A DNA stretch of 18,913 nucleotides from a virus (taxonomy: Duplodnaviria; Heunggongvirae; Uroviricota; Caudoviricetes), in IMG/VR virus record IMGVR_UViG_2671180298_000003, positions 1 through 18,913 of that record. One strand, 5' to 3'. Made by a program: the position numbers and the translations under genes. Shown here piece after piece: positions 1 to 15,322 of the stretch (positions are counted from its first letter, which is position 1; every line of letters starts with the position of its first letter). The notes beneath the pieces are model-generated. The model saw nothing but the letters and a program-made list of their open reading frames with translations. It was not told the origin of the DNA and did no database searches.

Positions 1-1401
1 CATTAGGGGATTCATCAGGGCCTTGCGCCGACGTTTGACATCATCCGGATTACGACCACCAGCACGTACCCAGTCTGATTCTGTCGCCGCTCCACCACGA
101 ATCTGGATTTTCCAGGCCTCAGCCTCCTTAACAGGGTCAATCCACGGCATCACTGGTCCGGAATACACCGCGGTATACAGTGAAGAACGGTCAAGATCGC
201 GGGGTAACCTGATAACACCGGATGCCACAGCCTGTTTCAGCCAGGCACGATACATCGGGCGGGTGACGGCACCAATAAACCAGTCCTGCAGGATCAGGTA
301 GCCATCAGTAGACTCAACCAGTTCCTGACGCTGGGCGCTGTAAGTGCCGTTATAGTTGCGTGCCGTACTGGAAAAACTCAGACGACTGCCCGCCGCCACG
401 GCACGCAACTGACCATTACGAAAAGTTTCAAGGTTAGGATTGGGACGATCCGACTTCACCATTCCGATTTCTTCGCCGGGTTTCAGATCGTCGTAAATAA
501 TGCCTGGCTGAATGGTAAGCTCGCGTTCATTCTCCTTGCTGCCATTACCATCCGGTTCATAGCTCTGCCCGTCGCCTTTCCGGATGTACATCCCCAGAGC
601 AGCGGCGATCCTTGCTGCAGTCAGCTCAGAATCTTCATACTCTTTCAGGGCACTGAGGCGGATCAGCACACCGGACAACAAAGACGTCCCGCGCATCTGG
701 TGCAGACGGCGAACAAATTTAAGATGCAGCATTCGCTCTGCATCCACTTCTTTGGTTTCCATCTGCCGCCCGGATACGGGACGGCTTTTATACACCAGAT
801 ATTTTTCGGGACGCCCCCAGTCATCAACAAACACGCCCTGATTCAGCCTGTTGCTCTCATCACTGGTCATGGGAATAAAGTCCGGCTCGAGCGCCTCCAG
901 CCAGAAATGAACACCGGCAGAAGGCGTCAGGCTGTTTATGCGCCCGGAAACCATCTGGGCAAACACCTCACCATCGCGCAGCCAGGTACGCAGCATCAGA
1001 CGTTCCAGCATCGGACGGGTAAACTGCCCGGTGACTTCCGGACTGACAGACCATTCACTCCATCGGGTGCGTATCTCCGCTGCCAGATCACGGGCAATGG
1101 CCCCATTGCGTAATACCGGATGTGGCTCGACAATAATCCCGTTTTTCCCCACCACCCGTTCTTCCAGCTTGTCAAATACACCAATAACCAGATCGTGGTT
1201 GTTATCAAGGTAACGGGCCTGCTCACGTAACGACACGGCCCCGTACTGGCTTAACTGGTCGGCAGTTCGGTTTTCCCGCCGGGCTTTGTGTGTCCGTGTC
1301 GTTTTTACGGCCTCATAAGCCTGGATCACCGCACGGGAACGCAGCCTTGCCGCTTTCCATCCTGGTGAAAAAACGCCAATCACATCATCAAGAATTGCCA
1401 T
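1..1401 (-). CDS. Phage portal protein, lambda gpB-like (partial; 467 codons in window, C-terminus beyond position 1)
   Basis: ATG at 1401-1399 overlaps the gpW stop (ATGA), GAGG SD 6 nt upstream; open frame runs to position 1 (hand-translated, begins MAILDDVIGVFSPGWKAARLRS); position directly after terminase large subunit and gpW matches lambda head-gene order. Not in ORF track because no stop lies in the window. Confidence 0.7.
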   Translation of the reverse strand, partial: MAILDDVIGVFSPGWKAARLRSRAVIQAYEAVKTTRTHKARRENRTADQLSQYGAVSLREQARYLDNNHDLVIGVFDKLEERVVGKNGIIVEPHPVLRNGAIARDLAAEIRTRWSEWSVSPEVTGQFTRPMLERLMLRTWLRDGEVFAQMVSGRINSLTPSAGVHFWLEALEPDFIPMTSDESNRLNQGVFVDDWGRPEKYLVYKSRPVSGRQMETKEVDAERMLHLKFVRRLHQMRGTSLLSGVLIRLSALKEYEDSELTAARIAAALGMYIRKGDGQSYEPDGNGSKENERELTIQPGIIYDDLKPGEEIGMVKSDRPNPNLETFRNGQLRAVAAGSRLSFSSTARNYNGTYSAQRQELVESTDGYLILQDWFIGAVTRPMYRAWLKQAVASGVIRLPRDLDRSSLYTAVYSGPVMPWIDPVKEAEAWKIQIRGGAATESDWVRAGGRNPDDVKRRRKALMNPLM

Positions 1402-1613
1402 CAGAACCTCGCCAGCCGGTACCCAGGATGCCCCCGTCGTCGTGTAATCAGAGCCGCAAGGCGGCGCTCCCACTCCTGCCGTCCCTGCCGGATCTCAGAT
1501 AAGTTTTCCATGGTCATCTGCTGACCATTAAAGGTGACGGATTTTCCGTCCAGCACCGCCATTTCAGCTTCCGTATAACGCTGAATCATGGCTTCGATAT
1601 CATTCTGGTTCAT
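1401..1613 (-). CDS. Head-tail joining protein gpW family
   Basis: ORF 1401..1619; ATG at 1613 overlaps the terminase TGA (ATGA) with GGAGG 6 nt upstream; ~70 aa with C-terminal RRRGHPGY resembling lambda W (RRRGPAGF). Confidence 0.7.
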   Translation of the reverse strand: MNQNDIEAMIQRYTEAEMAVLDGKSVTFNGQQMTMENLSEIRQGRQEWERRLAALITRRRGHPGYRLARF

Positions 1614-3712
1614 AACCATCCTCCGGAAGTCAGCCAGGGGTTAACATCGTCAGTTACTGTTTTCTTCCGTTTTTGTTTTTTAACAGGCGTGGATACCGGT
1701 TCCGGTGAGGGTGACGGTTCGGTACTGTCCGGGACACACTCCAGCCAGGTTTCCAGGCTCGCCCACTCCGGTGCATCCGGCCAGCGGATCTTTTCGTATC
1801 CATGCAGAATGACCAGAGCCTCGGCATACACCATCAGGTCAAAAGCTTCGTTGGCACCGCGACCCGGCTTACTCCATTTCCCGTCACTACTCCGCTCTTC
1901 ATACGTCAGTTCGTCGTAAAACCAGCTCCCCAGCCAGTCAGGGAAATGCACATAGCCGGGACCTGGAGAGTCACGCCATAACGCGTTATTCACCCGGTCT
2001 TTCAGGGCATCCGTCTGAAGAAGCCAGAGCGGCACATCACCTGCGGCCTGCGCCCGTCGGCCCGTTCGTCCGGTGTTATCAGGGAATGTACGGGTGATCA
2101 GTTTTGCGCGCCGGATGCTGTCGCCCTTAAACAGGTAAATACGTTTACCAAGGCCATCACGACGGCAACGACGCCAGAATTTATAGGCATTATCAGTGAC
2201 CCCGTCTTCACCGCCGGAGTCCACCGCCATTGCCATCAGTCGCATTTGTTGAGAAGGATCGGAGGCCAGCGGCCAGCTTTTATGAAAAACATCCGTCAGC
2301 AGGACATCCCAGTCTTCCGGATAGCTGGCCGGATCAATTCGCTGGCTCTCCCCGTCGCTGTCACCGCGCAATGACTGCGTGATGTTGTAACGATCAATAA
2401 TCCAGCGTTCGCCACGGCTGCCATAGCCCGTTACCTGAACCACAAAACGGCGATGACGTCCCGCCTGCACATCCACTGTCGCCACCAGGAAATTAACGCC
2501 ATCCGGCACACTGCGGGAAGGAACTGGCTCTGCCCGCTGCTCAAGCAGTTCACTTTTTCGTTGCTCCATGCTGGCACGGGGAAGATAAGGTAATCCCCAG
2601 TCGGTATTGATAACCGTCTTGAGTGTTTCTTCACTTCCGGTTGTCTCGTATTCCTGTTCTGCAGTAAGCAGTTTGTAAACGAGTTGCGAGAGTGTCTGGT
2701 AAGCAGCTGCCGGACCCTCCATCCAGAATGACGCAATACGTGAGCGTCGGGGATCACCATAACGACTGCCATCCGCATTGATGGATTCACCATCCCGCAA
2801 CCAGACCCCACGTCCGTTCAGCTCACGTTTTTGTTCAGGCATAATCCGTCCTGAACAGGAAGGACACTGAATATAAGCCGCCTCACTTGCCAGCACGGGA
2901 TCGGCAATATCACGGAAACCAGCAACCACATCGCCGCAGGGCTGAAAATACTCACCACAGTGTGGACAGGGCCAGTACCAGCGACGGCGATCGCCACGGT
3001 TATAGAGCGACAGTATCCCCGTGGTTGGTGGAGCCTCATGCGGTGAAGTCCGTCGCCATTTCACATCCTTCACATCCCTGCCGGGGGAACTCTCCACCAG
3101 CGTCATACCACTGGACATAAATGTGGTGGTACGTTTTGAGGCAAGAGAGAAGGCATCCCCCTCGCCATCAATATCTTCCGGAAAACGGTCATAATCCGTC
3201 AGCGCCACGCATTTATAATCTGATGAGGACATGATATTGACTGACGGCCAGCCGATTTTCAGGTAGTTGCCAGCAAGGAATGTTCTGTCATAAACGTTGT
3301 TGTCATTTTTGTTCGGACTCAGGCGACTGACCACTTCCGGGCTGACGCGAAACGTTCTGGCAAGTCGTTTTTTGGAGTGTTCGCGGGCTTTTTCCTCCGT
3401 CATCTGAATGATCAGCATATCAGCAGGATCGCAAATCACATTGTAAATCACCCAGCCGTCAATCAGGCCGATAGTCTTGCCAGTTCGTGCCGGGCCAACA
3501 AATATCACTGCGTCGTATTCACGCGAGGCCAGGCAGTTCATCGGCTCAATAACATACGGTGCCACCAGCGGATCCCACGGGACTGAATTCCCGGCCCCCA
3601 TGGGCACCCGCATATACTGAGCAACGGCATCAGCAACCAGCATTCGTCTCGGTGCGCGAAGGATATAACCTGAATCGGTTCGTGCTGCCTTTGCGGTTTC
3701 CTGATTCAGCAT
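1610..3712 (-). CDS. Terminase large subunit (lambda gpA family)
   Basis: 700-aa ORF; Walker A-like GPARTGKT; CPHCGE zinc motif as in lambda gpA; GGAGG SD 5 nt upstream of ATG; start overlaps the TerS stop (TAATG). Confidence 0.9.
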   Translation of the reverse strand: MLNQETAKAARTDSGYILRAPRRMLVADAVAQYMRVPMGAGNSVPWDPLVAPYVIEPMNCLASREYDAVIFVGPARTGKTIGLIDGWVIYNVICDPADMLIIQMTEEKAREHSKKRLARTFRVSPEVVSRLSPNKNDNNVYDRTFLAGNYLKIGWPSVNIMSSSDYKCVALTDYDRFPEDIDGEGDAFSLASKRTTTFMSSGMTLVESSPGRDVKDVKWRRTSPHEAPPTTGILSLYNRGDRRRWYWPCPHCGEYFQPCGDVVAGFRDIADPVLASEAAYIQCPSCSGRIMPEQKRELNGRGVWLRDGESINADGSRYGDPRRSRIASFWMEGPAAAYQTLSQLVYKLLTAEQEYETTGSEETLKTVINTDWGLPYLPRASMEQRKSELLEQRAEPVPSRSVPDGVNFLVATVDVQAGRHRRFVVQVTGYGSRGERWIIDRYNITQSLRGDSDGESQRIDPASYPEDWDVLLTDVFHKSWPLASDPSQQMRLMAMAVDSGGEDGVTDNAYKFWRRCRRDGLGKRIYLFKGDSIRRAKLITRTFPDNTGRTGRRAQAAGDVPLWLLQTDALKDRVNNALWRDSPGPGYVHFPDWLGSWFYDELTYEERSSDGKWSKPGRGANEAFDLMVYAEALVILHGYEKIRWPDAPEWASLETWLECVPDSTEPSPSPEPVSTPVKKQKRKKTVTDDVNPWLTSGGWL

Positions 3713-4206
3713 TACTCCTCCTGCTGTAATTCCTCCTCATCATCCGCACCTGCTTCGGTCACCCGCAGGGCTATCTGATCGCGCAGATCATCAATAATGG
3801 ACTGAACACGGCTCACAGCGGCAGGCTGCAGGCCGCAGTCACGTTCCAGAATATCCGGTAATGTCTCCAGCACCTGCACGACCGCTTTTGCCCAGATGGC
3901 AAACTCCCGTCTGACATCACTGGCCGGAATGAGTTGTGCCGTTTCCTGTTCGAACTTAAGACGCTCACGTTCAGACTGATACCAGGCTTTGCGTTCATGT
4001 GGATCCATTTCGCCCTCAGCAACCGGCGGTGGTAACCCCATAAATTCAGTCAGAATATCGGTCAACCGGTATAGCTTGAGTTTGTCATGTCCACCAGCGG
4101 GACGAATGTTTTTCAGTCTTGCCACGACAGTCTGGCGGTGCAGACCAGATATCCGCATGCAGCTCGTCGTGATGCTTTCTGCACAAAGGCAACACAAAGA
4201 GGTCAT
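3712..4206 (-). CDS. Terminase small subunit (Nu1-like); start unresolved (GTG 4227 / ATG 4206 / ATG 4158)
   Basis: Immediately upstream of and coupled to the large subunit; HTH-like GLHRQTVVARL near the N-terminus, acidic C-terminal tail; the 5' end overlaps the upstream DUF968 gene in another frame. Confidence 0.6.
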   Translation of the reverse strand: MTSLCCLCAESITTSCMRISGLHRQTVVARLKNIRPAGGHDKLKLYRLTDILTEFMGLPPPVAEGEMDPHERKAWYQSERERLKFEQETAQLIPASDVRREFAIWAKAVVQVLETLPDILERDCGLQPAAVSRVQSIIDDLRDQIALRVTEAGADDEEELQQEE

Positions 4207-5056
4207 GCGCTTTAGTACCCATTCCACCCTGACCGTGACCTATCAGGTGGTGGGGATCATCAGCGGGCTTTCCACAACATGCACACGGCTGTGTCTTAAC
4301 CCAACGCGTGTACTTTTCATTAACCCAGCGGCGACGTTTTGGGCGTAACATAAAAGACTCCGGCGACTCCGGATCCACTTTCAGCGCCAGCACCTTTTTT
4401 GCCTTATCCTGGATGATGCTGGTGGCAGGAACCGAAGGCACAAGGTCACTTTCCCGGGTGACAGACGGCACAACAGGCTTTGGTAATCTCAGTGCCTTAC
4501 GGGCTGCACTTTCCGGTAAGGCATCCGCCAGGTCATTACGAATCAGCCACCAGCACAGTTCCGGCATTGTCACAACGTGACTATCATCAAAACCGAGATC
4601 CCGACGCACAACAGACAACACCCAGCGGGCACAGTTATCCGTTGCCATTGATTCCAGCCGTTCCGTGAACTGATCGCGCAGCTGGTTATCGCAGTGCCAG
4701 CACAGACGGATTGCGCCCGGCGCGTGTCGCATTGTTGTCATGTTCTCGCTGTGCCAGTCGGAATGAGGCCACTGGCAGCCTTTTTCACGAAGTAACCAGC
4801 TTTCAAGACATTCCACGCCACCAGCACGACGGATCACTGCCTCATTGCGGAACACGGCCCGAACGGCAGGATCATCCGCCAGCGGTTGTGATGCCGCCGG
4901 TACGGCACCACTGGCGAAAGATGAATAACGTTCCGGCTCAGGCTCCAGCAGGACACGCCCCTGCATAAACAGGGGCATCAGCTCTGAACCTGGTCTGAAC
5001 AATACGATCCCCATACGCGGGGCAATTTCAGGGGTCAGTAGTGCTCTCACGGTCAC
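4085..5056 (-). CDS. DUF968-like phage protein with C-terminal Cys/His (HNH-like) metal-binding motif
   Basis: 323-aa ORF; C-terminal PCACCGKP...HHLIGHGQGGMGTKAHD...PLCRKHHDELH motif; GTG start 1 nt after the KilA-N stop; family assignment from memory. Confidence 0.5.
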   Translation of the reverse strand: MTVRALLTPEIAPRMGIVLFRPGSELMPLFMQGRVLLEPEPERYSSFASGAVPAASQPLADDPAVRAVFRNEAVIRRAGGVECLESWLLREKGCQWPHSDWHSENMTTMRHAPGAIRLCWHCDNQLRDQFTERLESMATDNCARWVLSVVRRDLGFDDSHVVTMPELCWWLIRNDLADALPESAARKALRLPKPVVPSVTRESDLVPSVPATSIIQDKAKKVLALKVDPESPESFMLRPKRRRWVNEKYTRWVKTQPCACCGKPADDPHHLIGHGQGGMGTKAHDLFVLPLCRKHHDELHADIWSAPPDCRGKTEKHSSRWWT

Positions 5057-5057
5057 C

Positions 5058-5867
5058 TCAATGAACGGTATCGAGCAGCTTTAACAGCTCAGGGAATCGG
5101 GATTCGAAGAAATGCGGCTGCGTCTCGCGCGGATTGGCGGGACTGGTGATGTTCTTGCCGAACATGCAGCCTTTCGCTGTCAGCGACCAGAATTTTTTGA
5201 TGTTGTTAATCGCGGTACGGCTGTATCGTTCGCGCTGCTCGACGATCCCCAGCTTCACCATCTGGTGATATGCCTGATTAGCTGTCAGGCGGATACCATA
5301 CTGCTTCAGCAGTGCACTCAGTGACAGCGTGGGGCGGCTTGAGCCATCAGGCGCGTCAGCAGGAGCATCAATGGCATAGCGCGGTGCCAGATTCGGTAAG
5401 CCAACAGCCTCCTGGAGTTTCTGACAGGCACCAAGCACTGAAGAGTTAGACAGGTTTAATTCCCGGCGCATAAAGTCCAGCAGAATCACACCAGCCTGCA
5501 TCTTGTCAGCAGCCTGTCCGGATAATTTTTCCGGTGCGCTGGTTACCATGTCGAAAGTACGGATCACCTTCAGATGGAATGACGGGCTGATCCACATTGC
5601 ATAGGCATACACCAGTTCCTTGCAGACATACGTTCCCCGTTCATTTCCCCCATGAATCACACTCACCGGGTCAACACCCAAATTCTGGGTGTTGGTCAAT
5701 TCATGAACAAGCTCAACAGTTTGTTGGCTGGAAAGAAACTTTCCTGGCTCCTTGGTTCTGGCATTTGCACCAGATGCTACTGCTGCGCGATGCAGATCGT
5801 TCAGGCTGTAACGCCCATAAGCATCACGACGAACTTCAATACCATCAATGACCATCAGATTATTCAT
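5058..5867 (-). CDS. KilA-N domain-containing phage protein (antirepressor-like)
   Basis: 269-aa ORF; N-terminal KilA-N pattern (IDGIEVRRDAYGRYSLNDLHRAA ... GTYVCKELVYAYAMWISPSFHLKV); GAGGAG SD upstream of ATG. Confidence 0.7.
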   Translation of the reverse strand: MNNLMVIDGIEVRRDAYGRYSLNDLHRAAVASGANARTKEPGKFLSSQQTVELVHELTNTQNLGVDPVSVIHGGNERGTYVCKELVYAYAMWISPSFHLKVIRTFDMVTSAPEKLSGQAADKMQAGVILLDFMRRELNLSNSSVLGACQKLQEAVGLPNLAPRYAIDAPADAPDGSSRPTLSLSALLKQYGIRLTANQAYHQMVKLGIVEQRERYSRTAINNIKKFWSLTAKGCMFGKNITSPANPRETQPHFFESRFPELLKLLDTVH

Positions 5868-5886
5868 ACTTCGTTTCTCCTCTTAA

Positions 5887-6276
5887 TCAGGCGGCTGCAC
5901 CCGCCGGTTTCTCATACTTACTGATAGTGATCTCGACCTTCCCTTTCGGGATAACCGGTCCCCACTCCACCAGCATTCTTTTCACCTGTCTGTCGTCTTC
6001 CCACACACCCGCGTGGGTCAGGGCGTCAAACAGCGCCTTGTTATAGTTGTCCAGATCGCGGATCCGGTTATCCGGAGGAAACAACACGATCTCCACTGAA
6101 GCAGGTGCCGACGTTGGTTTCGGCAGACGACGTAACTGCTCAACTATTGCTGCGCACGCCGCGCTCTGAAATTTTCGCCCCGCCTCGCTTATCAGGCTCT
6201 TACCAGCAAATGCCCCTTTGTTGGGGTGTCGCCAGTACGTGTTCACGCTGGGCGGAAAAGGCAGTATTAGCTTCAT
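5887..6276 (-). CDS. rusA: Holliday junction resolvase RusA
   Basis: 129-aa ORF; RusA-like LPFPPSVNTYWR N-terminus and DLDNYNKALFDALTHAGVWEDD core; ATG overlaps the upstream stop (ATGA); GAGGGAG SD. Confidence 0.85.
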   Translation of the reverse strand: MKLILPFPPSVNTYWRHPNKGAFAGKSLISEAGRKFQSAACAAIVEQLRRLPKPTSAPASVEIVLFPPDNRIRDLDNYNKALFDALTHAGVWEDDRQVKRMLVEWGPVIPKGKVEITISKYEKPAGAAA

Positions 6277-6599
6277 ACTTTCAGCTCCCTCTCATGTAAC
6301 CAGTGGGCTGCACGCAGCCTGGCGTTTTCCTCACCGGCAAGCAGTGCGCGGATGATACCGACCGCTTCGCTGTCGTCGTCCTTCACCGCGGTATGAAGCG
6401 TGATCCCCCGGGCCACGCCACGCTTTATCGTGATGACGCCTTTTTTCTCCAGTGCGCGAAGATGCTCCACCGCTGCATTCACTGAACGGTATCCCAGCAT
6501 GGTTGCCACCTCCTGATTGGTTGGCGGGAAGCCACGTTCTTTCTGGTAAGAAATCAGCATATCCAGCACCTGCTGCTGGCATTGAGTTAACGTCGTCAT
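6273..6599 (-). CDS. LexA-family DNA-binding protein: N-terminal LexA winged-HTH domain only, no S24 peptidase domain
   Basis: 108-aa ORF; residues 1-70 align closely by eye with the E. coli LexA N-terminal domain (LTQCQQQVLDMLISYQKERGFPPT...GYRSVNAAVEHLRALEKKGVI...ARGI); ends 40 residues later with no Ser/Lys protease motifs; ATGA-coupled to Dam. Confidence 0.75.
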   Translation of the reverse strand: MTTLTQCQQQVLDMLISYQKERGFPPTNQEVATMLGYRSVNAAVEHLRALEKKGVITIKRGVARGITLHTAVKDDDSEAVGIIRALLAGEENARLRAAHWLHERELKV

Positions 6600-7249
6600 G
6601 CCGCCATCTCCCTGACCAGTTTTTCCGCCTGCTGGCGAACCTGCGCCAGAAAGGCCTCACCACATGCCTCAAGTTCATCGCGCCCGATGTAGCTGATTGC
6701 CGGTCCCTTCCAGGTCTTGTCGAAAACAGCAATAGCACCAGCGAAGAAAGCGCCTGTCGGCACCTGCTTCTCATCCTTCGGGATAAACCAGGCAGGCAGT
6801 TCAAAACCAATACGCCCGCGAATAAAAGCAATATGGTCTGCGTCTTCCGGCCACCACACTTCGCTGGTGGCAGCTTTGATCAGGAAAACATAGCGCCCGC
6901 CTTTATCACGCATGGAACTGGCATGCTTCATGATGTAACGCATGCCAGTGATGTATTGCCCCTCATGCTGACTGGCGCGGCTGTATGGGGGATTACCAAA
7001 GGCAGCCCCTTTAAGCTCCGCAAGACGTTCTGACCAGTCATGTGCCAGCGCGTTGTCTTCCGCCGTGTAATACGCGGCACATTTGGCGTTATCACCGTCA
7101 GTGAACAGATCCAGAACAAACGGACCAAACAGGGTGTTAATTCCCCAGAAAATGTTATCCGGCGTGCGCCACTGATCGCCCACTTCCTTCAGTTCATGGG
7201 CTGGTTTGTTCCGCAGTTCCACCAGCGCCTGGCAATATTTATTACTCAT
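6596..7249 (-). CDS. Phage Dam-family DNA N6-adenine methyltransferase
   Basis: NPPY catalytic motif (FGNPPYS) and N-terminal WRTP motif; ATG at 7249 with GGGGG SD, overlapping the PerC-like stop (TAATG); ORF-track start 7282 is probably an upstream extension. Confidence 0.8.
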   Translation of the reverse strand: MSNKYCQALVELRNKPAHELKEVGDQWRTPDNIFWGINTLFGPFVLDLFTDGDNAKCAAYYTAEDNALAHDWSERLAELKGAAFGNPPYSRASQHEGQYITGMRYIMKHASSMRDKGGRYVFLIKAATSEVWWPEDADHIAFIRGRIGFELPAWFIPKDEKQVPTGAFFAGAIAVFDKTWKGPAISYIGRDELEACGEAFLAQVRQQAEKLVREMAA

Positions 7250-7737
7250 TAAGCCCCCACGTAATTCCCTGACAGATACCACTCTTCACCTGATGCAGCC
7301 CGCTTATTGCTTTTCCGTAAACACCGTTCACGACGCGCCAGAAAATTATTTCGTTCTGGCTGGGAGTGGCTTTCACGGAATGCCGCCATCCACACCGTTG
7401 CAGCACGACGGTATAAGCCCCTGGACTCCAGTTCTTCCGCCTGGCGGGTCAGGCACAAAATCACCCGCGGGTCGTTAGTGCCGACATAGAAATTGCGCAC
7501 AGGTCTGGTTTCACGAACTGGTTGTGGTTCCGGCTCCTGCGCTCTCTCAGTCAGGCGTGGGAAATGTCTGCGTGTATCTCCTTCACAACGGTGAGCCACA
7601 CGCCCACTCTGACGTAACTTGCTTGCTGACTGCAGAACGCGCTGCCGTGAGTAACCTGCAAAAGCATCCGCAATGTCTCCGGAAGTACACCCCGGATGGG
7701 CTTCAATGAATTTCTGAACTTCATTCAAAAGACTCAT
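7249..7737 (-). CDS. PerC-family transcriptional activator-like protein (YfdN-like)
   Basis: C-terminal LESRGLYRRAATVWMAAF resembles the conserved PerC/Pch motif; ATG at 7737 (third codon of ORF) with GGGGG SD; 2 nt after the upstream TGA. Confidence 0.5.
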   Translation of the reverse strand: MSLLNEVQKFIEAHPGCTSGDIADAFAGYSRQRVLQSASKLRQSGRVAHRCEGDTRRHFPRLTERAQEPEPQPVRETRPVRNFYVGTNDPRVILCLTRQAEELESRGLYRRAATVWMAAFRESHSQPERNNFLARRERCLRKSNKRAASGEEWYLSGNYVGA

Positions 7738-7739
7738 GA

Positions 7740-8558
7740 TCACCCCCTGAATCCTGCCGGGATCTGGCTGTAGTCCACGTTGTCGTAACTGGCTTTGAAG
7801 TACGGGTCCTCACGTCTGGCTGCAGATACCGCAGGAACTTCCCAGGATTCTTCGAAATGACGATCCGGACCAAAGAACGTGACAGCCTGTTTCACAAATT
7901 GTGTGCCGCTGTTACCCATCGCAGATACCCAGCCTGCATAGCGTTTCACACCTTCCAGCATGGTTTCGGGGTTTACCCCCTCATTCAAACGGGCTTTCCA
8001 GGCTTTGAAGGCTGCTGATTTTGAATTGCCACCAGCACGTTTGGGGTATGCCAGCCATGCCTGCTCAAACTCCGGAGAGTATTCCGGTCGGTTTGAACGA
8101 ACTCGCACGGACTCATCAGCAGATGCACCAACAGCTATTGGTTCATTGACTGGTTCTTTGACTGGTTCAAAAGAGTGACTGGTTCTGGGTGAATCTCCTG
8201 CACTACCCCCTGGTGCAACTCCTGCACTACCTGGTGAATTTGCTGCACCAGATAGTGAATTATTTGCACTACCCCCTAGTGAATCTCCTGCACCATCCAG
8301 ATGAAGGAGATAGATATTACTTGAGTTACCTTTTTCACCTTTCCGGGTGACTTTTTTTACCAGCCCGGACTCACAAAGGGCCGCAATATGATTCATCACA
8401 GAACGTTTGCTAATCTCGCACTGGTCAGCAATATGCTGGTAGCTGGGCCAGCACTCCCCCTGATCGCTGGCATTATCAGCCAGCTTGATCAGAACCAGTT
8501 TTCGCAATGGATTACCCACTCGAATTTTCATCGCTTTAACCATCAGCTCCATACTCAT
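7740..8558 (-). CDS. Replication initiator / replisome organizer (lambda O-like, YfdO-like) with internal iteron-bearing linker
   Basis: 272 aa; N-terminal winged-HTH typical of phage replication proteins; Gly/Ser/Ala-rich linker encoded by direct nucleotide repeats; lies downstream of cro/CII-like genes. Confidence 0.6.
   Translation of the reverse strand: MSMELMVKAMKIRVGNPLRKLVLIKLADNASDQGECWPSYQHIADQCEISKRSVMNHIAALCESGLVKKVTRKGEKGNSSNIYLLHLDGAGDSLGGSANNSLSGAANSPGSAGVAPGGSAGDSPRTSHSFEPVKEPVNEPIAVGASADESVRVRSNRPEYSPEFEQAWLAYPKRAGGNSKSAAFKAWKARLNEGVNPETMLEGVKRYAGWVSAMGNSGTQFVKQAVTFFGPDRHFEESWEVPAVSAARREDPYFKASYDNVDYSQIPAGFRG
8189..8300. repeat. Putative replication origin: about five ~22-24-bp direct repeats (iterons, core cTGCACtacc...GTGAAt) inside the O-like gene, preceded by three gactggttc repeats (8147-8185)
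   Basis: Repeats read directly from sequence; arrangement parallels lambda ori inside gene O. Confidence 0.55.
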
Positions 8559-8779
8559 GCAGCACCTCCGAGATGCTTCATGTTTTTTCCGGAGCGAAAG
8601 GTTATAAGCGGCATACTGACGCGGTAACTACGGCCCAGCGGTTCACAAATCACCTTCTGACATTCACGGTCAACCAGGCTAACACGTAGAACATGCCCTG
8701 CAGGTGTGGTGTACCACTGACCCGGACGAGGACAACGGAAAGTCTGATTGGTAAACCGTTTGAAAATATTCCGGATCAT
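8555..8779 (-). CDS. Hypothetical small phage protein (74 aa)
   Basis: ORF bracketed by ATGA/ATGA overlaps with both neighbours, consistent with translational coupling; no recognisable domain. Confidence 0.4.
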   Translation of the reverse strand: MIRNIFKRFTNQTFRCPRPGQWYTTPAGHVLRVSLVDRECQKVICEPLGRSYRVSMPLITFRSGKNMKHLGGAA

Positions 8780-9924
8780 TTGCGCCCCCTTACCTCTGAA
8801 GGGTTCAGCGACAAATTTATGAGGCAGGCCAGTGCCGAAGCATCATTAATATAGTCATACAAGCTAACAGCCAGCGGAGATTCGGCTTTTGCCAACATAG
8901 GATAAAGCTGCTGCAGCCAGACCTGATGAATTGATGAAATGTAGGAATAGAGAACGCTGGCGTTATGTGCAACGTCGCTCGGTACAGGGGGTTTTGAAAG
9001 CTGTTTCTCCATCTGGTTAAAGGCATTGATATATGCCTCTTTGAACTGGGCAGCACGTTTACCCGTGAAACCCATAGCAAGAAACGCAAAGCCGTCGCGG
9101 GTTATTTGATAGCAAGGTAGTTTGCGGCCTGATGCGTCGATGTACTCACTGAGCTGAAAATTCAGCTCAGTAAATTCGGCAGAGCATTCAAGAGACGCAA
9201 TTTTTTGAATGACATTTTTGTGTTGTTTGCCGAAATAACTAGCAACAGCCAGAGAAGAAGTAACAACTTTGTCTGCAATAATGCAAAGTTCAGGTTGTAC
9301 TAAGGCAGGGATCGTAGCCATGATGGCAGCCTCCGTATGCAATGGATAACTTCCACCACCGGAAACGCCAATTTCGCTGGTGGTGAACTGAGCAGGGTTG
9401 GCGTAACCGGCGCATACGGAAACCGGCGCACCTTTCGGTGCCCCCACCCAGCCCACCATAATTTGGGTATAGCTGAGTTGTAGCAACAAAAAAGACGCTA
9501 ACGCGCCAATTGTCGCCGTATGCAATTCCAGGACGCCAATCCCGGCACCCGCTTTATAAGGTGCCTGAACAGTGTAACGTCCCGGAATGGCAGAATCAAT
9601 GTGCTGGTGGTCCTTCACACTCAACAAAATCACGCCTGAATTTCCACAAAGGACTAAAGCACTCATGCGGGTAGTCTTTGCGAAGATAGATAACGCGCTG
9701 TGTTTCTGGCTCCCAACGAATAACATGGACATAAAGCCCTCTTCCGTCACGAAACCAGCGGTTAAGTTCCTGCACAACTCGCCCCCCACAGTCAGGTAAA
9801 GTTCTCTGTGGTTACTTACAGCCAGGTGATCTGGTAATCTGCATTCATGCCGTAACAACAGGTGTTCAGCGACACTGACCACCAGCTGTTGCGACAAACG
9901 GTTATTTGCCGTTAAACTGTTCAT
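8776..9924 (-). CDS. Rha-family phage regulatory protein with ~200-aa N-terminal extension; nested in-frame start at 9321 would give a 181-aa Rha-only product (8776..9321)
   Basis: C-terminal 181 aa begins MATIPALV and carries the Rha signature GFAFLAMGFTGKRAAQFKEAYINAFNQME; GGAGG SD 8 nt upstream of internal ATG 9321; upstream ATG 9924 overlaps the stop of the preceding gene (ATGA) and the frame stays open for 201 codons. Confidence 0.65.
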   Translation of the reverse strand: MNSLTANNRLSQQLVVSVAEHLLLRHECRLPDHLAVSNHRELYLTVGGELCRNLTAGFVTEEGFMSMLFVGSQKHSALSIFAKTTRMSALVLCGNSGVILLSVKDHQHIDSAIPGRYTVQAPYKAGAGIGVLELHTATIGALASFLLLQLSYTQIMVGWVGAPKGAPVSVCAGYANPAQFTTSEIGVSGGGSYPLHTEAAIMATIPALVQPELCIIADKVVTSSLAVASYFGKQHKNVIQKIASLECSAEFTELNFQLSEYIDASGRKLPCYQITRDGFAFLAMGFTGKRAAQFKEAYINAFNQMEKQLSKPPVPSDVAHNASVLYSYISSIHQVWLQQLYPMLAKAESPLAVSLYDYINDASALACLINLSLNPSEVRGRK

Positions 9925-10472
9925 GCGTTAGTTTCTCCACAGACACAAAACGCCACGACGCCCGGAGCTGCACACTCGCGGGCGTCACTCTTTTCTGGAG
10001 CGCAGAAGATTTTGTAGACCAGTGCTGCATGCTCCTGGAGCTTCGAAATTGACAGATACAACTCATCATTAATTGCTGTCTGCTCGTGTGGCTCCACGAC
10101 CCCATCTTCGATTGCCGAACGAATCTGCTTTGAGTAATTCCCGATCTGTTCGATGACTTCCAGCAGGCGCTGGTTTATATCGGCGTTCTCTACTTCCTCA
10201 ATTTCAGGAAGCGATACGAACACCCCACCGGCAGACTGTGCGACAGCATCCGCAATGTAGTGAGTGCCAGCCGCGCGCTGTAAAACCATTGCCCATCCCA
10301 GCGGGAAAATCTGATCGCCATCTGCACGAAGGCGGTTGAATAAAGCGTTCTCTGTTACATCCAGCCAGTCAGCAGCTTCAGCGTAACCCCCAGGCAATGC
10401 CGCGATAGTTTTTCTGACAGCTTTCACGTACCACTCAGGTTGTTTTTCCACTTTCCAGTGATGCTTACCCAC
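9921..10472 (-). CDS. Putative CII-like (CP76-type) phage regulatory protein
   Basis: 183-aa ORF directly after cro; GTG start with GGAGG SD 6 nt upstream; HTH-like segment GGYAEAADWLDVTENALFNRL; family assignment tentative. Confidence 0.4.
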   Translation of the reverse strand: MGKHHWKVEKQPEWYVKAVRKTIAALPGGYAEAADWLDVTENALFNRLRADGDQIFPLGWAMVLQRAAGTHYIADAVAQSAGGVFVSLPEIEEVENADINQRLLEVIEQIGNYSKQIRSAIEDGVVEPHEQTAINDELYLSISKLQEHAALVYKIFCAPEKSDARECAAPGVVAFCVCGETNA

Positions 10473-10725
10473 GGCTTACCTCCTGTTCCTGTGGTTTAAA
10501 CCCATTCTGGTTTTGGCTAGATTGAAAACGTGCCGGATAAAGAATCTGCATTTCGCTGATTTCACCCTTAAAAAAATTGGCCAGACGTTCTGCAAGATCG
10601 ATAGATGGAATTTGTTCCAGTCTTTCAATACGACTCAGCGTCGCTGGATTGACCTGAACGCCCGCAGCAACATGCTGCAAAGTAAATCCGTGCGCCTTAC
10701 GCACATTTCGTAATGGTGATTGCAT
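10465..10725 (-). CDS. cro: Cro-like XRE-family HTH repressor
   Basis: 86 aa; HTH FTLQHVAAGVQVNPATLSRIERLEQ; divergent from cI across an operator-rich 97-bp spacer; GGAGG SD 5 nt upstream. Confidence 0.75.
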   Translation of the reverse strand: MQSPLRNVRKAHGFTLQHVAAGVQVNPATLSRIERLEQIPSIDLAERLANFFKGEISEMQILYPARFQSSQNQNGFKPQEQEVSRG

Positions 10726-10822
10726 ATAACCTCCACATATTGCGTGATGAGCATATTATTTCACGCAAATATTTTGCGCAAGTTGATTTGCTTAACGCGC
10801 AATAAAGAAATGTAATAAACGC
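10726..10822. promoter_or_regulatory. Immunity switch region (OR-like): divergent cro and cI promoters with operator-like sites
   Basis: TTGCTTAACGCGCAA (10788-10802, TTGC-N7-GCAA), palindromic TTGCGCAA (10774-10781), inverted repeat TTGCGTGA...TCACGCAA (10740-10768); putative -35 TTGCTT / -10 TGTAAT ending at the cI ATG. Confidence 0.6.
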
Positions 10823-11515
10823 ATGAACATAGGAAACCGAGTCAGACAACTTCGCCAGGCGAAGAACATGAAAATCGCCGATCTCGCTGAAGCAATAGGA
10901 GTGGATGCGGCGAATATCTCGCGCCTGGAAACAGGTAAGCAGAAACAATTCACTGAACAAGCCCTGAGTAATATTGCCAGGAGCTTAGGTGTTGATATTG
11001 CTGATCTCTTTACCTCAGACGTCAAAAGTAATACTGTATGTAAAAACAGTATTAGTGAGGATGTTGCGCAGGTGAAGGATGTATTCCGTATTGAAATGCT
11101 GGATGTCAGTGCCAGTGCGGGAAATGGCCTTATCCAGGGCGGTGATGTCATTGATGTGATTCATGCCATTGAATACAGAACTGATAATGCTGTATCGATG
11201 TTTGGCGGACGACCAGCCAATCACATTAAAGTTATCAACGTTCGTGGGGACAGTATGTGTCCAACCATTGAGCCAGGAGATCTCATCTTCGTTGATATCA
11301 GTATCAATCAGTTTGATGGGGATGGTATATATGTATTTGGTTTTGATGATAAAATTTACGTCAAACGACTGCAAATGATACCTGATAAACTGCTGGTAAT
11401 TTCTGATAATCAGATTTACCGCGAATGGGGAATTACCAGCGAAAACGAACATCGGTTTATGGTCTTTGGAAAGGTCTTAATCAGTCAGTCACAAACCCTT
11501 AAGCGACACAATTAA
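10823..11515 (+). CDS. cI: CI-type prophage repressor (N-terminal XRE HTH, C-terminal S24 LexA-like peptidase)
   Basis: 230 aa; HTH MKIADLAEAIGVDAANISRLETGK; Ala-Gly cleavage site (SASAGNG); catalytic Ser in GDSM and Lys in YVKRL. Confidence 0.9.
   Translation: MNIGNRVRQLRQAKNMKIADLAEAIGVDAANISRLETGKQKQFTEQALSNIARSLGVDIADLFTSDVKSNTVCKNSISEDVAQVKDVFRIEMLDVSASAGNGLIQGGDVIDVIHAIEYRTDNAVSMFGGRPANHIKVINVRGDSMCPTIEPGDLIFVDISINQFDGDGIYVFGFDDKIYVKRLQMIPDKLLVISDNQIYREWGITSENEHRFMVFGKVLISQSQTLKRHN
11032..11051. promoter_or_regulatory. LexA/SOS-box-like palindrome TACTGTATGTAAAAACAGTA inside the cI coding sequence
   Basis: Perfect CTGT-N8-ACAG with TA flanks and AT-rich spacer; only such site found in a manual scan of the window. 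Confidence 0.4.
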
Positions 11516-11536
11516 CCCCCTACCTCAACATCAATT

Positions 11537-11558
11537 AGCCACCAGAAGGTGGCTTTTC
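11537..11558 (+). terminator. Rho-independent terminator downstream of cI
   Basis: Hairpin AGCCACC-agaa-GGTGGCT followed by TTTT, 22 nt after the cI stop. Confidence 0.6.
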
Positions 11559-11571
11559 ATTACCCACCAAA

Positions 11572-11610
11572 TTGCATATCTCGCAATAAAAACACTTGCA
11601 TAATGCGCAA
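11572..11610. promoter_or_regulatory. OL-like operator pair / probable early-left promoter region
   Basis: Two TTGC-N7-GCAA sites (TTGCATATCTCGCAA 11572-11586; TTGCATAATGCGCAA 11596-11610) matching the motif in the cI/cro spacer. Confidence 0.5.
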
Positions 11611-12055
11611 CTTCATTTTATCTTTCTTTCCAGACCTACAAACAAGGTACTAACAAAATTTGGTTGTAACACGGCGTATGGCACATGCGTCGTTAGCGGT
11701 CTGGGGACGTTAAAGGGGACAATCCACTCCTTGCTCGGGCAAACAAACCAGGTAGCCGGAATGTGCAAGTCAATGATGATGCTGATAAGACGCCTAACCA
11801 GCGTGGCGATTCGGTTTGACGCCTGGGAAGAGACCAGGGTGCAACGATGAGGGCATTTATGGAGCCGCGACAAAGTGTGGTGCCGTAACTGGCTAAGTGC
11901 TCTCAGCGTTGTGGTGAATGCGCAGGCTGATGCGCGAAAGACATTGCAGCTATTGCGGAAAAGAGCTGTTCGGCGGGGCAATTAAACGCCCGTGAGAGTC
12001 TGAAATAACCGCAAGCCGGAGATCAGCACCGGTCACCACAACAGCCACTGCTTTG

Positions 12056-12101
12056 GCGGTACCAGTTTGTACACTTGCTTCCGGCTGGTACCGCTCTTTT
12101 T
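12056..12101 (+). terminator. Terminator-like hairpin in early-left leader, overlapping a boxA-like CGCTCTTTTTAC
   Basis: Perfect 10-bp stem GCGGTACCAG/CTGGTACCGC, 19-nt loop, then TCTTTTT. Confidence 0.4.
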
Positions 12102-12238
12102 ACAAAACAGAGAAGAGCATCACCGGACGACGGGCTCATAACCCAATCCATCCGGGCGGCTGCCACCGCAGGTGTTCTTCTCTGTTTTGTGGAGAAACCA
12201 ACCGACCTTGCAGGGTCGATATGATGAGGAGCAGCAAA

Positions 12239-12601
12239 ATGGCTAGCGAACGCAGTACTGATGTGCAGGCATTTATCGGGGAGCTGGACGGCGGCGTATT
12301 TGAAACCAAAATCGGCGCAGTTCTCAGTGAAGTCGCTTCAGGTGTGATGAACACGAAAACCAAAGGTAAGGTCTCACTCAACCTGGAAATCGAACCATTT
12401 GATGAGAACCGTGTGAAAATCAAACACAAACTCTCATATGTTCGCCCGACTAACCGCGGGAAAATTTCCGAAGAAGACACCACCGAAACGCCGATGTATG
12501 TCAATCGCGGTGGTCGCCTGACTATTCTGCAGGAAGACCAGGGACAATTACTGACTCTTGCCGGTGAACCTGACGGAAAACTACGCGCAGCAGGTCATTA
12601 A
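12239..12601 (+). CDS. Hypothetical early phage protein (YfdP-like, 120 aa)
   Basis: AGGAG SD 7 nt upstream of ATG 12239; ORF-track upstream extension (TTG at 12053) crosses leader hairpins and lacks an RBS. Confidence 0.6.
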   Translation: MASERSTDVQAFIGELDGGVFETKIGAVLSEVASGVMNTKTKGKVSLNLEIEPFDENRVKIKHKLSYVRPTNRGKISEEDTTETPMYVNRGGRLTILQEDQGQLLTLAGEPDGKLRAAGH

Positions 12602-12666
12602 TATCGTTCTTAATTAACTGATTATTTATCTCATCACTGAATATCTTTATATAGTGAGGACTTATT

Positions 12667-13491
12667 ATGTCTCAGAACTTAGACGCAACCGCAATTAATC
12701 AAATCCATGCCCTTATTTCTGCTCAGGGTGTTAATGAAATTATCAGTAAGATTGGTGCCGATGCTGTGGCATTGCCTGAGAATTTCCGCATTCATGATCT
12801 GGAAAAATTTAATTTAAATCGCTTCCGTTTCCGTGGTGCGCTTTCCACTGCCAACATCGATGACTTTACCCGTTATTCTAAAGATCTTGCAGATGAAGGC
12901 ACCCGCTGCTTTATCGATGCTGATAATATGCGTGCCGTCAGTGTACTTAACCTGGGTACTATTGATGAACCAGGTCACGCAGATAACACCGCCACTCTCA
13001 AACTGAAAAAGACAGCACCGTTCTCTGCCCTGTTGTCTGTTAACGGCGAGCGTAACTCCCAGAAGTCACTGGCAGAATGGATTGAAGACTGGGCCGACTA
13101 CCTTGTGGGCTTTGATGCTAATGGTGACGCTATTCAGGCAACAAAAGCGGCTGCGGCAGTCCGTAAAATCACGATTGAAGCAAACCAGACCGCTGATTTT
13201 GAAGATAATGACTTCAGCGGCAAACGCTCCCTGATGGAATCTGTCGAAGCGAAGACCAAAGACATTATGCCAGTGGCATTTGAATTTAAATGCGTTCCGT
13301 TTGAAGGTCTGAAAGAACGTCCGTTTAAATTACGCCTCAGCATTATCACTGGCGATCGTCCTGTACTGGTTCTGCGCATTATTCAGCTGGAAGCGGTGCA
13401 GGAAGATATGGCTAACGAATTTCGTGATCTGCTTGTTGAGAAATTCAAAGACAGCAAAGTAGAAACCTTTATTGGTACTTTCACCGCCTGA
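12667..13491 (+). CDS. yfdQ: YfdQ-like protein (DUF2303 family), function unknown
   Basis: 274 aa, same length and operon position as CPS-53 YfdQ; GAGGA SD upstream; family call from memory. Confidence 0.6.
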
Positions 13492-13503
13492 TTTCATTAC
13501 TGC

Positions 13504-13527
13504 AAATGCCCCTGCGGGGGCATTTAT
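13504..13527 (+). terminator. Intra-operon rho-independent terminator/attenuator
   Basis: AAATGCCCC-tgcg-GGGGCATTT hairpin followed by AT-rich tail, 13 nt after the yfdQ-like stop. Confidence 0.55.
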
Positions 13528-13618
13528 GGAAACGTAATTAACTCAATAATCACCGGATGGTGAGGGCTTCCTTTTACCCAAACTCAGCGCGGTGCAGCGC
13601 ATATACGTGGAGAACAAA

Positions 13619-14155
13619 ATGTCATTTATTAAAACTTTTTCCGGGAAGCATTTTTATTATGACAAGATAAATAAAGACGACATCGTGATTAACGATATCG
13701 CGGTTTCCCTTTCAAATATCTGCCGCTTTGCCGGTCATCTTTCTCACTTCTACAGTGTCGCCCAACATGCGGTGCTTTGCAGCCAGCTGGTGCCGCAGGA
13801 ATTTGCTTTTGAAGCGTTAATGCATGATGCAACAGAAGCGTATTGCCAGGATATTCCCGCTCCACTGAAACGCCTTCTTCCTGACTATAAACGGATGGAA
13901 GAAAAAATTGACGCCGTAATCCGTGAGAAATACGGGTTACCCCCAGTTATGAGTACGCCCGTGAAATATGCCGATCTTATCATGCTGGCAACCGAACGCC
14001 GCGATCTCGGGCTTGATGATGGCTCTTTCTGGCCTGTACTGGAAGGCATCCCGGCAACAGAGATGTTCAACGTGATTCCACTGGCACCTAGCCATGCCTA
14101 CGGGATGTTTATGGAACGTTTTAACGAGTTATCGGAGTTACGCAAATGCGCATGA
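13619..14155 (+). CDS. yfdR: HD-domain phosphohydrolase, YfdR-like 5'-deoxynucleotidase
   Basis: 178 aa from ATG 13619 (GGAG SD); HD signature H...HD (SVAQHAV ... LMHDATEA); ORF-track GTG start at 13592 is probably an extension. Confidence 0.7.
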   Translation: MSFIKTFSGKHFYYDKINKDDIVINDIAVSLSNICRFAGHLSHFYSVAQHAVLCSQLVPQEFAFEALMHDATEAYCQDIPAPLKRLLPDYKRMEEKIDAVIREKYGLPPVMSTPVKYADLIMLATERRDLGLDDGSFWPVLEGIPATEMFNVIPLAPSHAYGMFMERFNELSELRKCA

Positions 14156-14508
14156 ATGTTTTCGAAATGGAAGGGTTTCTTCGCGGGAAATGTGTACCGC
14201 GAGATCTGAAAGTGAACGAAACAAATGCTGAGTACCTGGTACGTAAATTCGACGCGCTTGAAGCTAAATGTGCGGCACTGGAAAACAAAATAATACCAGT
14301 GTCAGCTGAACTGCCACCAGCAAATGAAAGTGTTCTGTTATTTGATGCTAACGGAGAAGGCTGGCTGATTGGCTGGCGTTCTCTCTGGTACACTTGGGGA
14401 CAAAAAGAAACCGGAGAATGGCAGTGGACATTTCAGGTCGGGGACCTTGAAAACTTCAATATCACTCACTGGGCAGTAATGCCAAAAGCGCCGGAGGCTG
14501 GAGCATAA
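14146..14508 (+). CDS. DUF551-like phage protein (YfdS-like)
   Basis: 120 aa; C-terminal ITHWAVMPKAPE motif; GGAG SD; overlaps upstream stop. Confidence 0.55.
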   Translation: MRMNVFEMEGFLRGKCVPRDLKVNETNAEYLVRKFDALEAKCAALENKIIPVSAELPPANESVLLFDANGEGWLIGWRSLWYTWGQKETGEWQWTFQVGDLENFNITHWAVMPKAPEAGA

Positions 14509-15128
14509 TGACCACATTTACCAATAAAGAACTGATTAAAGAAATCAAAGAACGAATCAGCAGCCTAGAGGTTCGAGACGATATTGAGCGCCGTGCTTAT
14601 GAAATTGCTCTGGCATCGCTAGAAGAGGAGCCGGTGGCATGGCTGCATTCAGAAAATGGCTTAGGTATTCCGGCAATAACGAGGAGTAAAAACATTGCTG
14701 ACAGTTGGTTATCAAAGGGCTGGTATGTTCAGCCGCTATATATAGCCAAGCCAGTGCCGGTGGTGCCAGATGCTCGTCCGTCTTTAAATAATGGCATAGT
14801 CGGCTTTGATGAAGGCTGGAACGCCTGCCGCGCCGCCATGCTTAATGGTGCCGAACCTGTAAGCCAGACTTACAAGTTGAACGAGCTGTCGGGCAACTCT
14901 CCGGTAACTCCGGATGGTTGGATAAGCTGTAGTGAGCGAATGCCGAACGATAAACAGTATGTTTGGTGTTGGGGTAAGTCTTACGGCTGGACTGAGTGCG
15001 ATACCTTCGAAGGGTATTACGATTGTTCGAGAAACAAATGGTGGGCAGTTACTGACAATGGGGAAGAACCGGCATCGAAAGTAACCCACTGGATGCCGCT
15101 ACCGGAGCCACCGCAGGAGGTGAAGTAA
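14508..15128 (+). CDS. DUF551-domain phage protein (YfdT-like, longer form)
   Basis: 206 aa; C-terminal W...ERMP...VTHWMPLPEPP motif; TAATG overlap with upstream gene. Confidence 0.55.
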   Translation: MTTFTNKELIKEIKERISSLEVRDDIERRAYEIALASLEEEPVAWLHSENGLGIPAITRSKNIADSWLSKGWYVQPLYIAKPVPVVPDARPSLNNGIVGFDEGWNACRAAMLNGAEPVSQTYKLNELSGNSPVTPDGWISCSERMPNDKQYVWCWGKSYGWTECDTFEGYYDCSRNKWWAVTDNGEEPASKVTHWMPLPEPPQEVK

Positions 15129-15322
15129 TGAACAACTTAATGACAACTAAACAAGTCGCCGACTTCTGTGGCGTTTCAGTATCGACCGTTCTTCGCTGGA
15201 ACAGCGTAAACAGGAGAACTGGCCAGAAATACAGGCCAGACTTTCCAGATCCTGATATTAAATCATGCCCAAATAAATGGGCATCACGCAAGATTTACAA
15301 ATTTGCGGGAGTTATTGAGTAA
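15128..15322 (+). CDS. Excisionase-like HTH DNA-binding protein (AlpA/TorI family)
   Basis: 64 aa; HTH MTTKQVADFCGVSVSTVLRW; strong AGGAGGTGA SD; last gene of early-left operon, facing the integrase. Confidence 0.7.
   Translation: MNNLMTTKQVADFCGVSVSTVLRWNSVNRRTGQKYRPDFPDPDIKSCPNKWASRKIYKFAGVIE

Follow-up and report, generated by a model that had tools for sequence, protein, structure and literature searches.

The stretch of DNA analyzed here (IMG/VR record IMGVR_UViG_2671180298_000003, positions 1 to 18,913; in the following, "the window") is a defective lambda-like prophage of Escherichia coli. We focused on one of its genes, an open reading frame (ORF) of 108 amino acids on the minus strand at 6273..6599 (ATG at 6599-6597, stop codon at 6275-6273), which encodes a DNA-binding domain of the LexA type followed by a conserved tail. 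The gene lies on the cro side of the cI/cro immunity region, in which cI occupies 10823..11515 on the plus strand, and the order along the minus strand is cro-like gene, ymfL, Rha, O-like helix-turn-helix protein, PerC/YfdN, Dam, LexA-like gene, RusA, KilA-N, and DUF968. Both ends of the gene overlap a neighbor by an ATGA, shared at 6596..6599 with the stop codon of the Dam methyltransferase ORF (6596..7282, minus strand; PF05869, E = 9e-46) and at 6273..6276 with the start codon of the RusA resolvase ORF (5887..6276, minus strand; PF05866, E = 1e-14). A Shine-Dalgarno-like GGAG is found at 6608..6611 within the 3' end of Dam, 8 nucleotides upstream of the ATG (TCAGGGAGATGGCGGC-ATG, minus strand). 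No promoter-like site was found directly upstream of the gene on its own strand, and for this reason its expression should depend on derepression of the early operon. The original prediction, made from the sequence alone, had already placed the gene in the rightward operon and proposed its translational coupling to Dam and RusA, and both statements agree with what we found, the operon being the early one on the cro side.

Residues 1 to 65 matched the whole Pfam model LexA_DNA_bind (PF01726, model positions 1 to 65 of 65) with E = 2.9e-19 and 69 bits, the gathering score of the model being 23.7 bits. In a phmmer search against PDB sequences the protein retrieved the DNA-binding domain of E. coli LexA (1LEA) with E = 6.4e-16 and full-length LexA with E of ca. 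1e-15, and an ungapped comparison of residues 1 to 70 with E. coli LexA gave 35 identities in 70 positions. The AlphaFold model built from a family alignment of 26 sequences (A3) had a mean predicted local distance difference test score (pLDDT) of 81.8, and ca. 87 in the winged helix-turn-helix; this model was preferred to the one obtained from the single sequence (pLDDT of 56), which was dropped. Superimposed with Foldseek on LexA in its operator complex (3JSO), it showed a root mean square deviation of 0.9 Å over 68 columns, with 50% identity. The winged helix-turn-helix covers codons 1 to 68 (6396..6599, minus strand), with helices at residues 6 to 22, 28 to 35, and 40 to 52 and a beta wing formed by residues 56 to 58 and 66 to 68. 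The similarity to the LexA DNA-binding domain is far beyond chance, in line with the assignment of the first ca. 70 residues in the original prediction.

The recognition helix of the window protein reads S39-V-N-A-A-V-E45-H-L-R-A-L50, with the NAAxEHLxAL context noticed from the start, and the wing carries R64-G65. In LexA, helix III contacts the operator through S39, N41, A42, E44, and E45 (PMC3091678). Four of these five contacts are kept in the window protein (S39, N41, A42, and E45), while E44 is replaced by V44. Among the 26 sequences of A3, S39, N41, R64, and G65 are invariant, whereas the recognition-helix positions 40 and 43 to 45 differ among clades; none of the 26 short-family proteins has Glu at position 44, and position 45 may be E, D, G, L, T, or I.

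The protein stops at residue 108, and the Pfam search gave no match to Peptidase_S24, the domain that carries the Ser119/Lys156 dyad. The NCBIfam equivalog model for lexA (TIGR00498) was matched only over model positions 1 to 91 of 203, with 70.6 bits, below its cutoff of 110.95. The absence of the Ser/Lys peptidase domain had been correctly anticipated, and immunity to RecA-stimulated autocleavage follows from it. The further claim that the Ala-Gly cleavage site is lacking needs to be qualified. The dipeptide is literally present, since phmmer pairs Ala88-Gly89-Glu90 with Ala84-Gly85-Glu86 of LexA (Ala88-Gly89 codons at 6333..6338, minus strand). However, the equivalents in relatives are ANE, ERE, TRK, DDQ, AEE, and others, and the model locates the dipeptide at the end of a predicted helix. 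Because it is neither conserved nor predicted to lie outside a helix, we read it as a chance occurrence or a relic and not as a cleavage site, and a trans-cleavage or decoy role built on it was rejected on the same grounds. Without a peptidase domain, self-cleavage is in any case excluded, whatever the nature of Ala88-Gly89.

Beyond the winged helix-turn-helix there is a short linker of low model confidence (codons 69 to 74; 6378..6395, minus strand) and then a conserved tail of two helices (codons 75 to 103; 6291..6377, minus strand). The tail overturns the idea of a protein consisting of the DNA-binding domain only. Its helices were predicted at residues 75 to 88 and 93 to 103 with pLDDT of ca. 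85, while the 10-residue block 71 to 80 had a mean pLDDT of 61 and the linker varied in sequence and length in A3. The family motif is EAVxLLRALxAxExxARxRAxxxLxxxG, in which A97 is invariant and A79 and L101 almost invariant, although the relatives are only 40 to 50% identical overall, and the tail, 35 to 40 residues long in the window protein, is conserved across genera of the Enterobacterales. Searches with the tail returned nothing below E = 0.04 in Pfam and nothing below E = 0.25 in the PDB. A HEAT-like repeat or another known domain was considered and rejected, given this lack of Pfam and PDB matches and the fact that Foldseek matched the winged helix-turn-helix only. The hydrophobic moment of the tail, taken as a measure of its amphipathicity, did not differ from that of shuffled sequences and was thus uninformative. 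We infer that the tail acts as a dimerization or partner-binding module in place of the S24 domain, dimerization being the most likely of these roles.

The gene is present in 2,233 of 5,426 complete E. coli genomes (41%), with up to four copies per genome, and the matches had 90 to 100% nucleotide identity (at least 95% in all except ten records). Fifty-one deposited phage genomes also carry it, among them those of Shigella phages and of phages converting for Stx2a, Stx2c, and Stx2k; among the carriers, mEp460-like and Stx2 phages are viable. Exhaustive and profile searches recovered short relatives of 104 to 135 amino acids, every one of them with the tail, from Escherichia, Citrobacter, Salmonella, Cronobacter, Klebsiella, Enterobacter, Atlantibacter, Kosakonia, Hafnia, and Scandinavium. 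A scan of contigs with A3 gave mostly true host lexA genes, owing to a peptide pattern common to LexA, and was informative for loci L016, L017, L019, and L039. Between the alleles of the window, Stx2a_1447, and phage Kati, the synonymous to nonsynonymous codon differences were 8:2, 6:3, and 9:1; all replacements fell in the tail and the helix-turn-helix part was invariant. By this comparison of alleles, the gene is under purifying selection.

As for annotation, the whole protein (residues 1 to 108) matched positions 1 to 106 of 106 of the PHROGs profile phrog_362, "transcriptional repressor" (E = 6.8e-59), a name that is an annotation and not a tested function. Depositors have used "LexA family transcriptional regulator" (NCBI), "LexA-like protein," "repressor, lexA family," "lexA DNA-binding domain protein," and "LexA repressor," and the entry in a survey of Stx phages consists only of "pham 237, LexA family, pfam01726, 15 phages" (PMC8136144). 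Our full-text literature search found no experimental work on the enterobacterial family, only mentions at the level of annotation. PADLOC gave just a marginal, irrelevant match for the window protein. The exhaustive search also returned some unusual architectures. Six proteins (P0130, P0132, P0148, P0151, P0152, and P0156) have two tandem LexA_DNA_bind stretches and no peptidase, and five single-member entries (P0121, P0254, P0025, P0092, and P0253) join the LexA-like protein to Dam or RusA, most likely as a result of frameshift or assembly errors at the ATGA overlaps and not as real fusions.

The gene neighborhoods of the relatives fall into two types. In type A, found in E. coli, Cronobacter, Salmonella (protein P0296), Atlantibacter, and Kosakonia, the order is methyltransferase, LexA-like gene (106 to 112 amino acids), and RusA. 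Type B, found in Klebsiella pneumoniae/variicola, K. oxytoca, K. michiganensis, Enterobacter, Scandinavium, and one Salmonella genome, starts with a promoter bearing one or two canonical SOS boxes, followed by a dinI homolog, a recA homolog (361 to 369 amino acids), or nothing. It continues with a small phrog_1813 ORF, the LexA-like gene (118 to 135 amino acids, with an N-terminal extension), and a phrog_1212 ORF, and ends with RusA in some loci, DUF968, and then Q where a match was recorded. This upstream module of the SOS-box/dinI type was seen in loci L004 to L006, L013, L014, L039, and L098 to L103, and a terminator-like hairpin with a T run preceded the promoter in all five type B loci read upstream (L013, L014, L098, L102, and L103). 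No homolog of phrog_1813 or phrog_1212 was found in the window.

Some details of the type B loci deserve mention. The recA homologs are full length and belong to prophages of Klebsiella and relatives (L098 to L102, 2575/2598-3683/3684), with single or tandem SOS boxes; the dinI homologs lie at 7425-7658 in L004 to L006, 3425-3658 in L103, and 1816-2049 in L039. The N-terminal extension of the type B proteins, ca. 25 residues long, carries a recurrent (S/C/N/G)-Ala-Gly motif in P0268, P0286, P0315, P0138, P0271, P0291, P0259, and P0174, and this extension is not seen in P0194, P0246, L039, or the window protein.

Only RusA and DUF968 are constant neighbors across genera. The identical protein P0274 occurs alongside two different cI and cro genes, and family members accompany differing types of Q. 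The gene is thus not tied to one immunity region or to one Q, which is compatible with a target located outside these modules, for instance generic SOS boxes.

Within the window, the exact pattern CTGT-N8-ACAG occurs twice, against 0.20 expected, and two occurrences were reached in 3 of 200 shuffles. One of them, the strong SOS box TACTGTATGTAAAAACAGTA at 11032..11051, lies in the linker-coding part of cI and agrees with the consensus at 17 of 20 positions; for the LexA-like protein it is no more than a candidate target. The other, CTGTGGTTACTTACAG at 9806-9821, lies in the 5' part of a Rha-family ORF (8776..9924, minus strand), has a GC-richer spacer, and agrees with the 20-bp consensus at only 11 of 20 positions; it recurs in the related prophage L001, and probably it is either weak or due to chance. 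The cI-internal box is found at the same offset (+211) in cI homologs with nucleotide identities as low as 69%, while the spacer and the encoded residues change (8210-8229 in both L002 and L003; same offset in L011 and L012). The cI homologs of ST64B (76% nucleotide identity) and of Klebsiella phage 1 LV-2017 (69%) contain an exact box. In phiNP and Flotzy one half-site has changed, which leaves CTG-N10-CAG. Since these four phages have the site at the same offset and no LexA-like gene, the box is not specific to the gene and is probably bound by host LexA in this family of repressor genes; a pairing of the LexA-like gene with the cI-internal box was rejected for the same reason. The box in cI brought up in the original prediction is accordingly real, with no specific relation to the protein. 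Its conservation suggests a LexA site inside the cI gene, for which a roadblock or an internal promoter would be possible roles.

Other spacings and orientations of CTGT half-sites were also inspected in the window, and none stood out besides N8. In the block from Dam to DUF968, a search for operator-like palindromes yielded no more than five short inverted repeats, and CTGT half-sites were absent from all of them. There is a perfect 9-nucleotide inverted repeat, CAACACCCA-N5-TGGGTGTTG, at 5672-5694 in the KilA-N gene (5058..5867, minus strand); by a rough hand estimate, ca. 0.2 repeats of this length are expected in the 3.4 kb scanned.

The prophage itself has suffered a deletion. Compared with an otherwise 98 to 99.7% identical prophage in NZ_CP062901, it has lost 4.8 kb at the junction 4149/4150 (L001 14451-19243). 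Along with the Q antiterminator, the lysis genes (holin/lysozyme/Rz), and a DNA methyltransferase of the late region, this deletion took away the 3' end of DUF968, and DUF968 is now joined to the DUF1441/terminase region. The deleted part includes the position at which a further canonical SOS box (e.g., TACTGTAAAAATAAACAGTG) appears in the late region of relatives, 2.7 to 4.1 kb downstream of the LexA-like gene (L001 16088, L013 7741, L039 7883, and L017 6796). In L001 and L013 this box is placed at the 5' end of a gene for an N6/N4 DNA methyltransferase or a short distance before it, and a similar box in L014 (9166) lies between the lysozyme gene and an unannotated minus-strand ORF. At the other side of the window, adjoining the integrase, an ORF of 729 amino acids (15430-17619, minus strand) encodes BovA of the Borvo anti-phage defense system (PADLOC E = 2e-241, with a weak Pfam CHAT domain). 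At that place the related prophage L001 has an "anti-phage dCTP deaminase," and the position next to the integrase looks like a hot spot for the exchange of defense genes.

Set beside E. coli LexA (1LEA and 3JSO), the window protein has the same fold, ca. 50% identity over 68 to 70 residues, and the residues S39, N41, A42, E45, and R64-G65 in common. It differs in lacking the S24 peptidase/dimerization domain, in having V44 for E44 and a 35-residue two-helix tail unrelated to LexA, and in being phage encoded within an early operon. Judging from its sequence, it would work like LexA but is not LexA, because it matches PF01726 and fails to reach the TIGR00498 cutoff, has no S24 domain, and has no conserved scissile bond. 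It resembles the N-terminal product of LexA autocleavage (residues 1 to 84), a DNA-binding domain without peptidase that is reported to keep some SOS-box binding and repression and needs to be removed by ClpXP (PMC10584840). Cleavage of LexA exposes residues that target the fragment for degradation by ClpXP and Lon (PMC3159453). However, the phage protein continues into a folded tail and ends in ELKV, and we would expect it to escape this degradation. The noninducible lexA3 allele (Ind-, G85D), which blocks LexA-dependent prophage induction (PMC3121763), would be similar in its expected effect, an occupancy of SOS boxes that activated RecA cannot relieve, but it is a full-length dimeric LexA with a point mutation, while the window protein is devoid of the whole cleavage machinery.

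The other relevant precedents come from phages. In Bacillus phage GIL01, the truncated LexA homolog gp6 activates the late promoter P3 from its own palindrome (PMC6182141). Like the window protein, gp6 is encoded by a phage and consists essentially of the DNA-binding domain of LexA, and it is produced early within a phage circuit that LexA governs (PMC6182141). Unlike it, gp6 has 66 amino acids and no tail, belongs to a tectivirus of a Gram-positive host, binds GaCACAnnTGTGaC, and has K/T/H/R where LexA has N41/A42/E44/E45 and the window protein N41/A42/V44/E45, K38 of the gp6 recognition helix being aligned with N41 of both. The gp6 palindrome was not found in the window with up to one mismatch, the late region being deleted from this prophage, and BLASTP produced no pairwise alignment of the two proteins. 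Given the additional tail, the dissimilar recognition residues, and the lack of both a gp6 operator and a BLASTP alignment, the window protein is, on sequence criteria, not a member of the gp6 family. The Gifsy prophages of Salmonella have a LexA-controlled dinI/antirepressor module (PMC3121763) that the type B loci recall in their arrangement downstream of replication genes, with an SOS box (preceded by a hairpin in the five loci read), dinI, and a small ORF. The window copy differs from it, as it sits between Dam and RusA without that promoter, dinI, or small ORF. Moreover, Gifsy modules have not been described with a LexA-like gene, and the phrog_1813 ORF had no match at E ≤ 1e-5 in the Gifsy records of the phage collection. 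The kind of protein, a phage-encoded LexA DNA-binding domain without protease, is therefore known and the family already catalogued and named; what makes the gene worth an experiment is the conserved tail and the SOS-box/dinI/recA operons of its relatives.

Our best reading, which we hold tentatively and to which we give somewhat less than an even chance, is that the gene codes for a cleavage-proof repressor of the LexA type. It would be a small regulator derived from LexA, in which the LexA-type winged helix-turn-helix is combined with a two-helix tail that replaces the S24 domain and most likely provides dimerization. Having neither a peptidase nor a conserved cleavage site, it could not be inactivated by activated RecA. 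The protein would be made only upon loss of the cI repressor, because its message would be the early transcript of the cro side, which also serves Dam and RusA. It might then occupy LexA-type operators (CTGT half-sites) while the host LexA is cleaved, and so return SOS-box promoters, whether of the host or of prophages, to a repressed state as a LexA surrogate, a kind of SOS "off-switch." The analysis shows the fold and domain content of the protein, its conservation under purifying selection, the place of the gene in the operon, and the association of relatives with SOS-box operons; that the tail dimerizes, which DNA is targeted, and whether the effect is repression are what we infer here. 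In its most specific form, a RecA-proof surrogate that shuts SOS-box promoters after the destruction of host LexA, with damping of the SOS response in window-type prophages, Stx2 phages among them, and feedback in those of type B, the proposal appears to us doubtful. The idea of a LexA surrogate draws support from the four LexA contacts of five and the wing R64-G65, which are kept here (N41, A42, and E45 being replaced in gp6, which reads a different operator), from the residual binding and repression reported for the LexA N-terminal fragment (PMC10584840), and from the location of the type B relatives in SOS-box operons with DinI or RecA. The binding to SOS boxes expected in the original prediction is plausible.

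Several observations weigh against a cleavage-proof LexA surrogate. The variability of residues 44 and 45 does not easily agree with one invariant SOS box in the host, and residue 45 did not covary with the SOS boxes found upstream in the relatives; the type B boxes are canonical whatever residue 45 is, so host LexA alone explains them. In the type A loci of Cronobacter, Atlantibacter, and Salmonella (P0296) there was no SOS box within 8 to 16 kb, and the gene is missing from ST64B, Klebsiella phage 1 LV-2017, phiNP, and Flotzy, all of which have the site in cI. The tail, which the proposal would use for dimerization, has no known homolog in Pfam or the PDB. Finally, gp6, the only phage-encoded truncated LexA that has been studied, is an activator with its own site, and by analogy the same might apply here. 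The protein could then be a phage-specific regulator, either activator or repressor, that uses the LexA fold at its own operator, as gp6 does at P3, and governs a phage promoter instead of the SOS regulon. We regard this as possible, albeit on the unlikely side. Apart from the precedent of gp6 and its palindrome (PMC6182141), it would account for the variation of positions 40 and 43 to 45 by clade, as expected for diverging specificities, for the LexA control of the gene itself in relatives, which is shared with gp6, and for the generic names in PHROGs and NCBI. Yet the window clade keeps N41, A42, and E45, which are replaced in gp6, and there is neither a gp6-type operator in the window nor an operator-like palindrome in the co-inherited block from Dam to DUF968. 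Besides, with P0274 next to two cI/cro sets and with varied Q types, a cognate operator would often be separated from its regulator.

The constancy of RusA and DUF968 as neighbors across genera, where no promoter region is constant, could instead point to a protein that works mainly through its tail, bringing a DNA-binding module to adjacent nuclease or recombination functions such as RusA and DUF968/HNH, or binding an SOS protein of the host, and that is no promoter-specific regulator. The tail as the family's own conserved feature, without known homolog, and the cotranscription of relatives with DinI or RecA homologs would also fit such a partner. We consider it improbable, as the argument is drawn from the neighborhood only and the nin regions of lambdoid phages are mosaics of unrelated accessory genes, whereas the invariance of S39, N41, and the wing R64-G65 speaks for sequence-specific contact with DNA. 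Even less credible, and indeed very improbable, is a functionless, decaying remnant of a full-length LexA or cI-type repressor. The phmmer alignment does extend to residue 86 of LexA, Ala-Gly included, as if the protein had been truncated past the cleavage region, and the window prophage is itself defective. However, members of 104 to 135 amino acids with a conserved tail exist in more than eight genera, synonymous changes predominate between alleles, and the gene is preceded by a ribosome-binding site, is coupled to its neighbors at start and stop, and is carried by 2,233 of 5,426 E. coli genomes and by viable phages.

Whichever of the regulatory functions applies, the annotation "LexA repressor," which the gene bears in many genomes, is misleading, because the protein is not LexA and is unable to respond to RecA. 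If it acts at an operator of its own, GIL01 gp6 would have a Gram-negative counterpart. If, on the other hand, it truly occupies SOS boxes without being cleaved, a common prophage gene would reset or blunt the DNA-damage response, which drives mutagenesis, persistence, colicin release, and the induction of other prophages. Were the cleavage-proof surrogate correct, the SOS response of the host would be damped while prophages of the window type, Stx2 phages among them, go through lytic development. In the Klebsiella/Enterobacter type the protein, insensitive to cleavage, would feed back negatively on the LexA-controlled dinI/recA/small-ORF operon to which its gene belongs, so that a sustained SOS signal would give rise to a pulse. 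The family would then represent a widespread phage switch over SOS mutagenesis, the cross-induction of Shiga toxin phages, and the responses to antibiotics.

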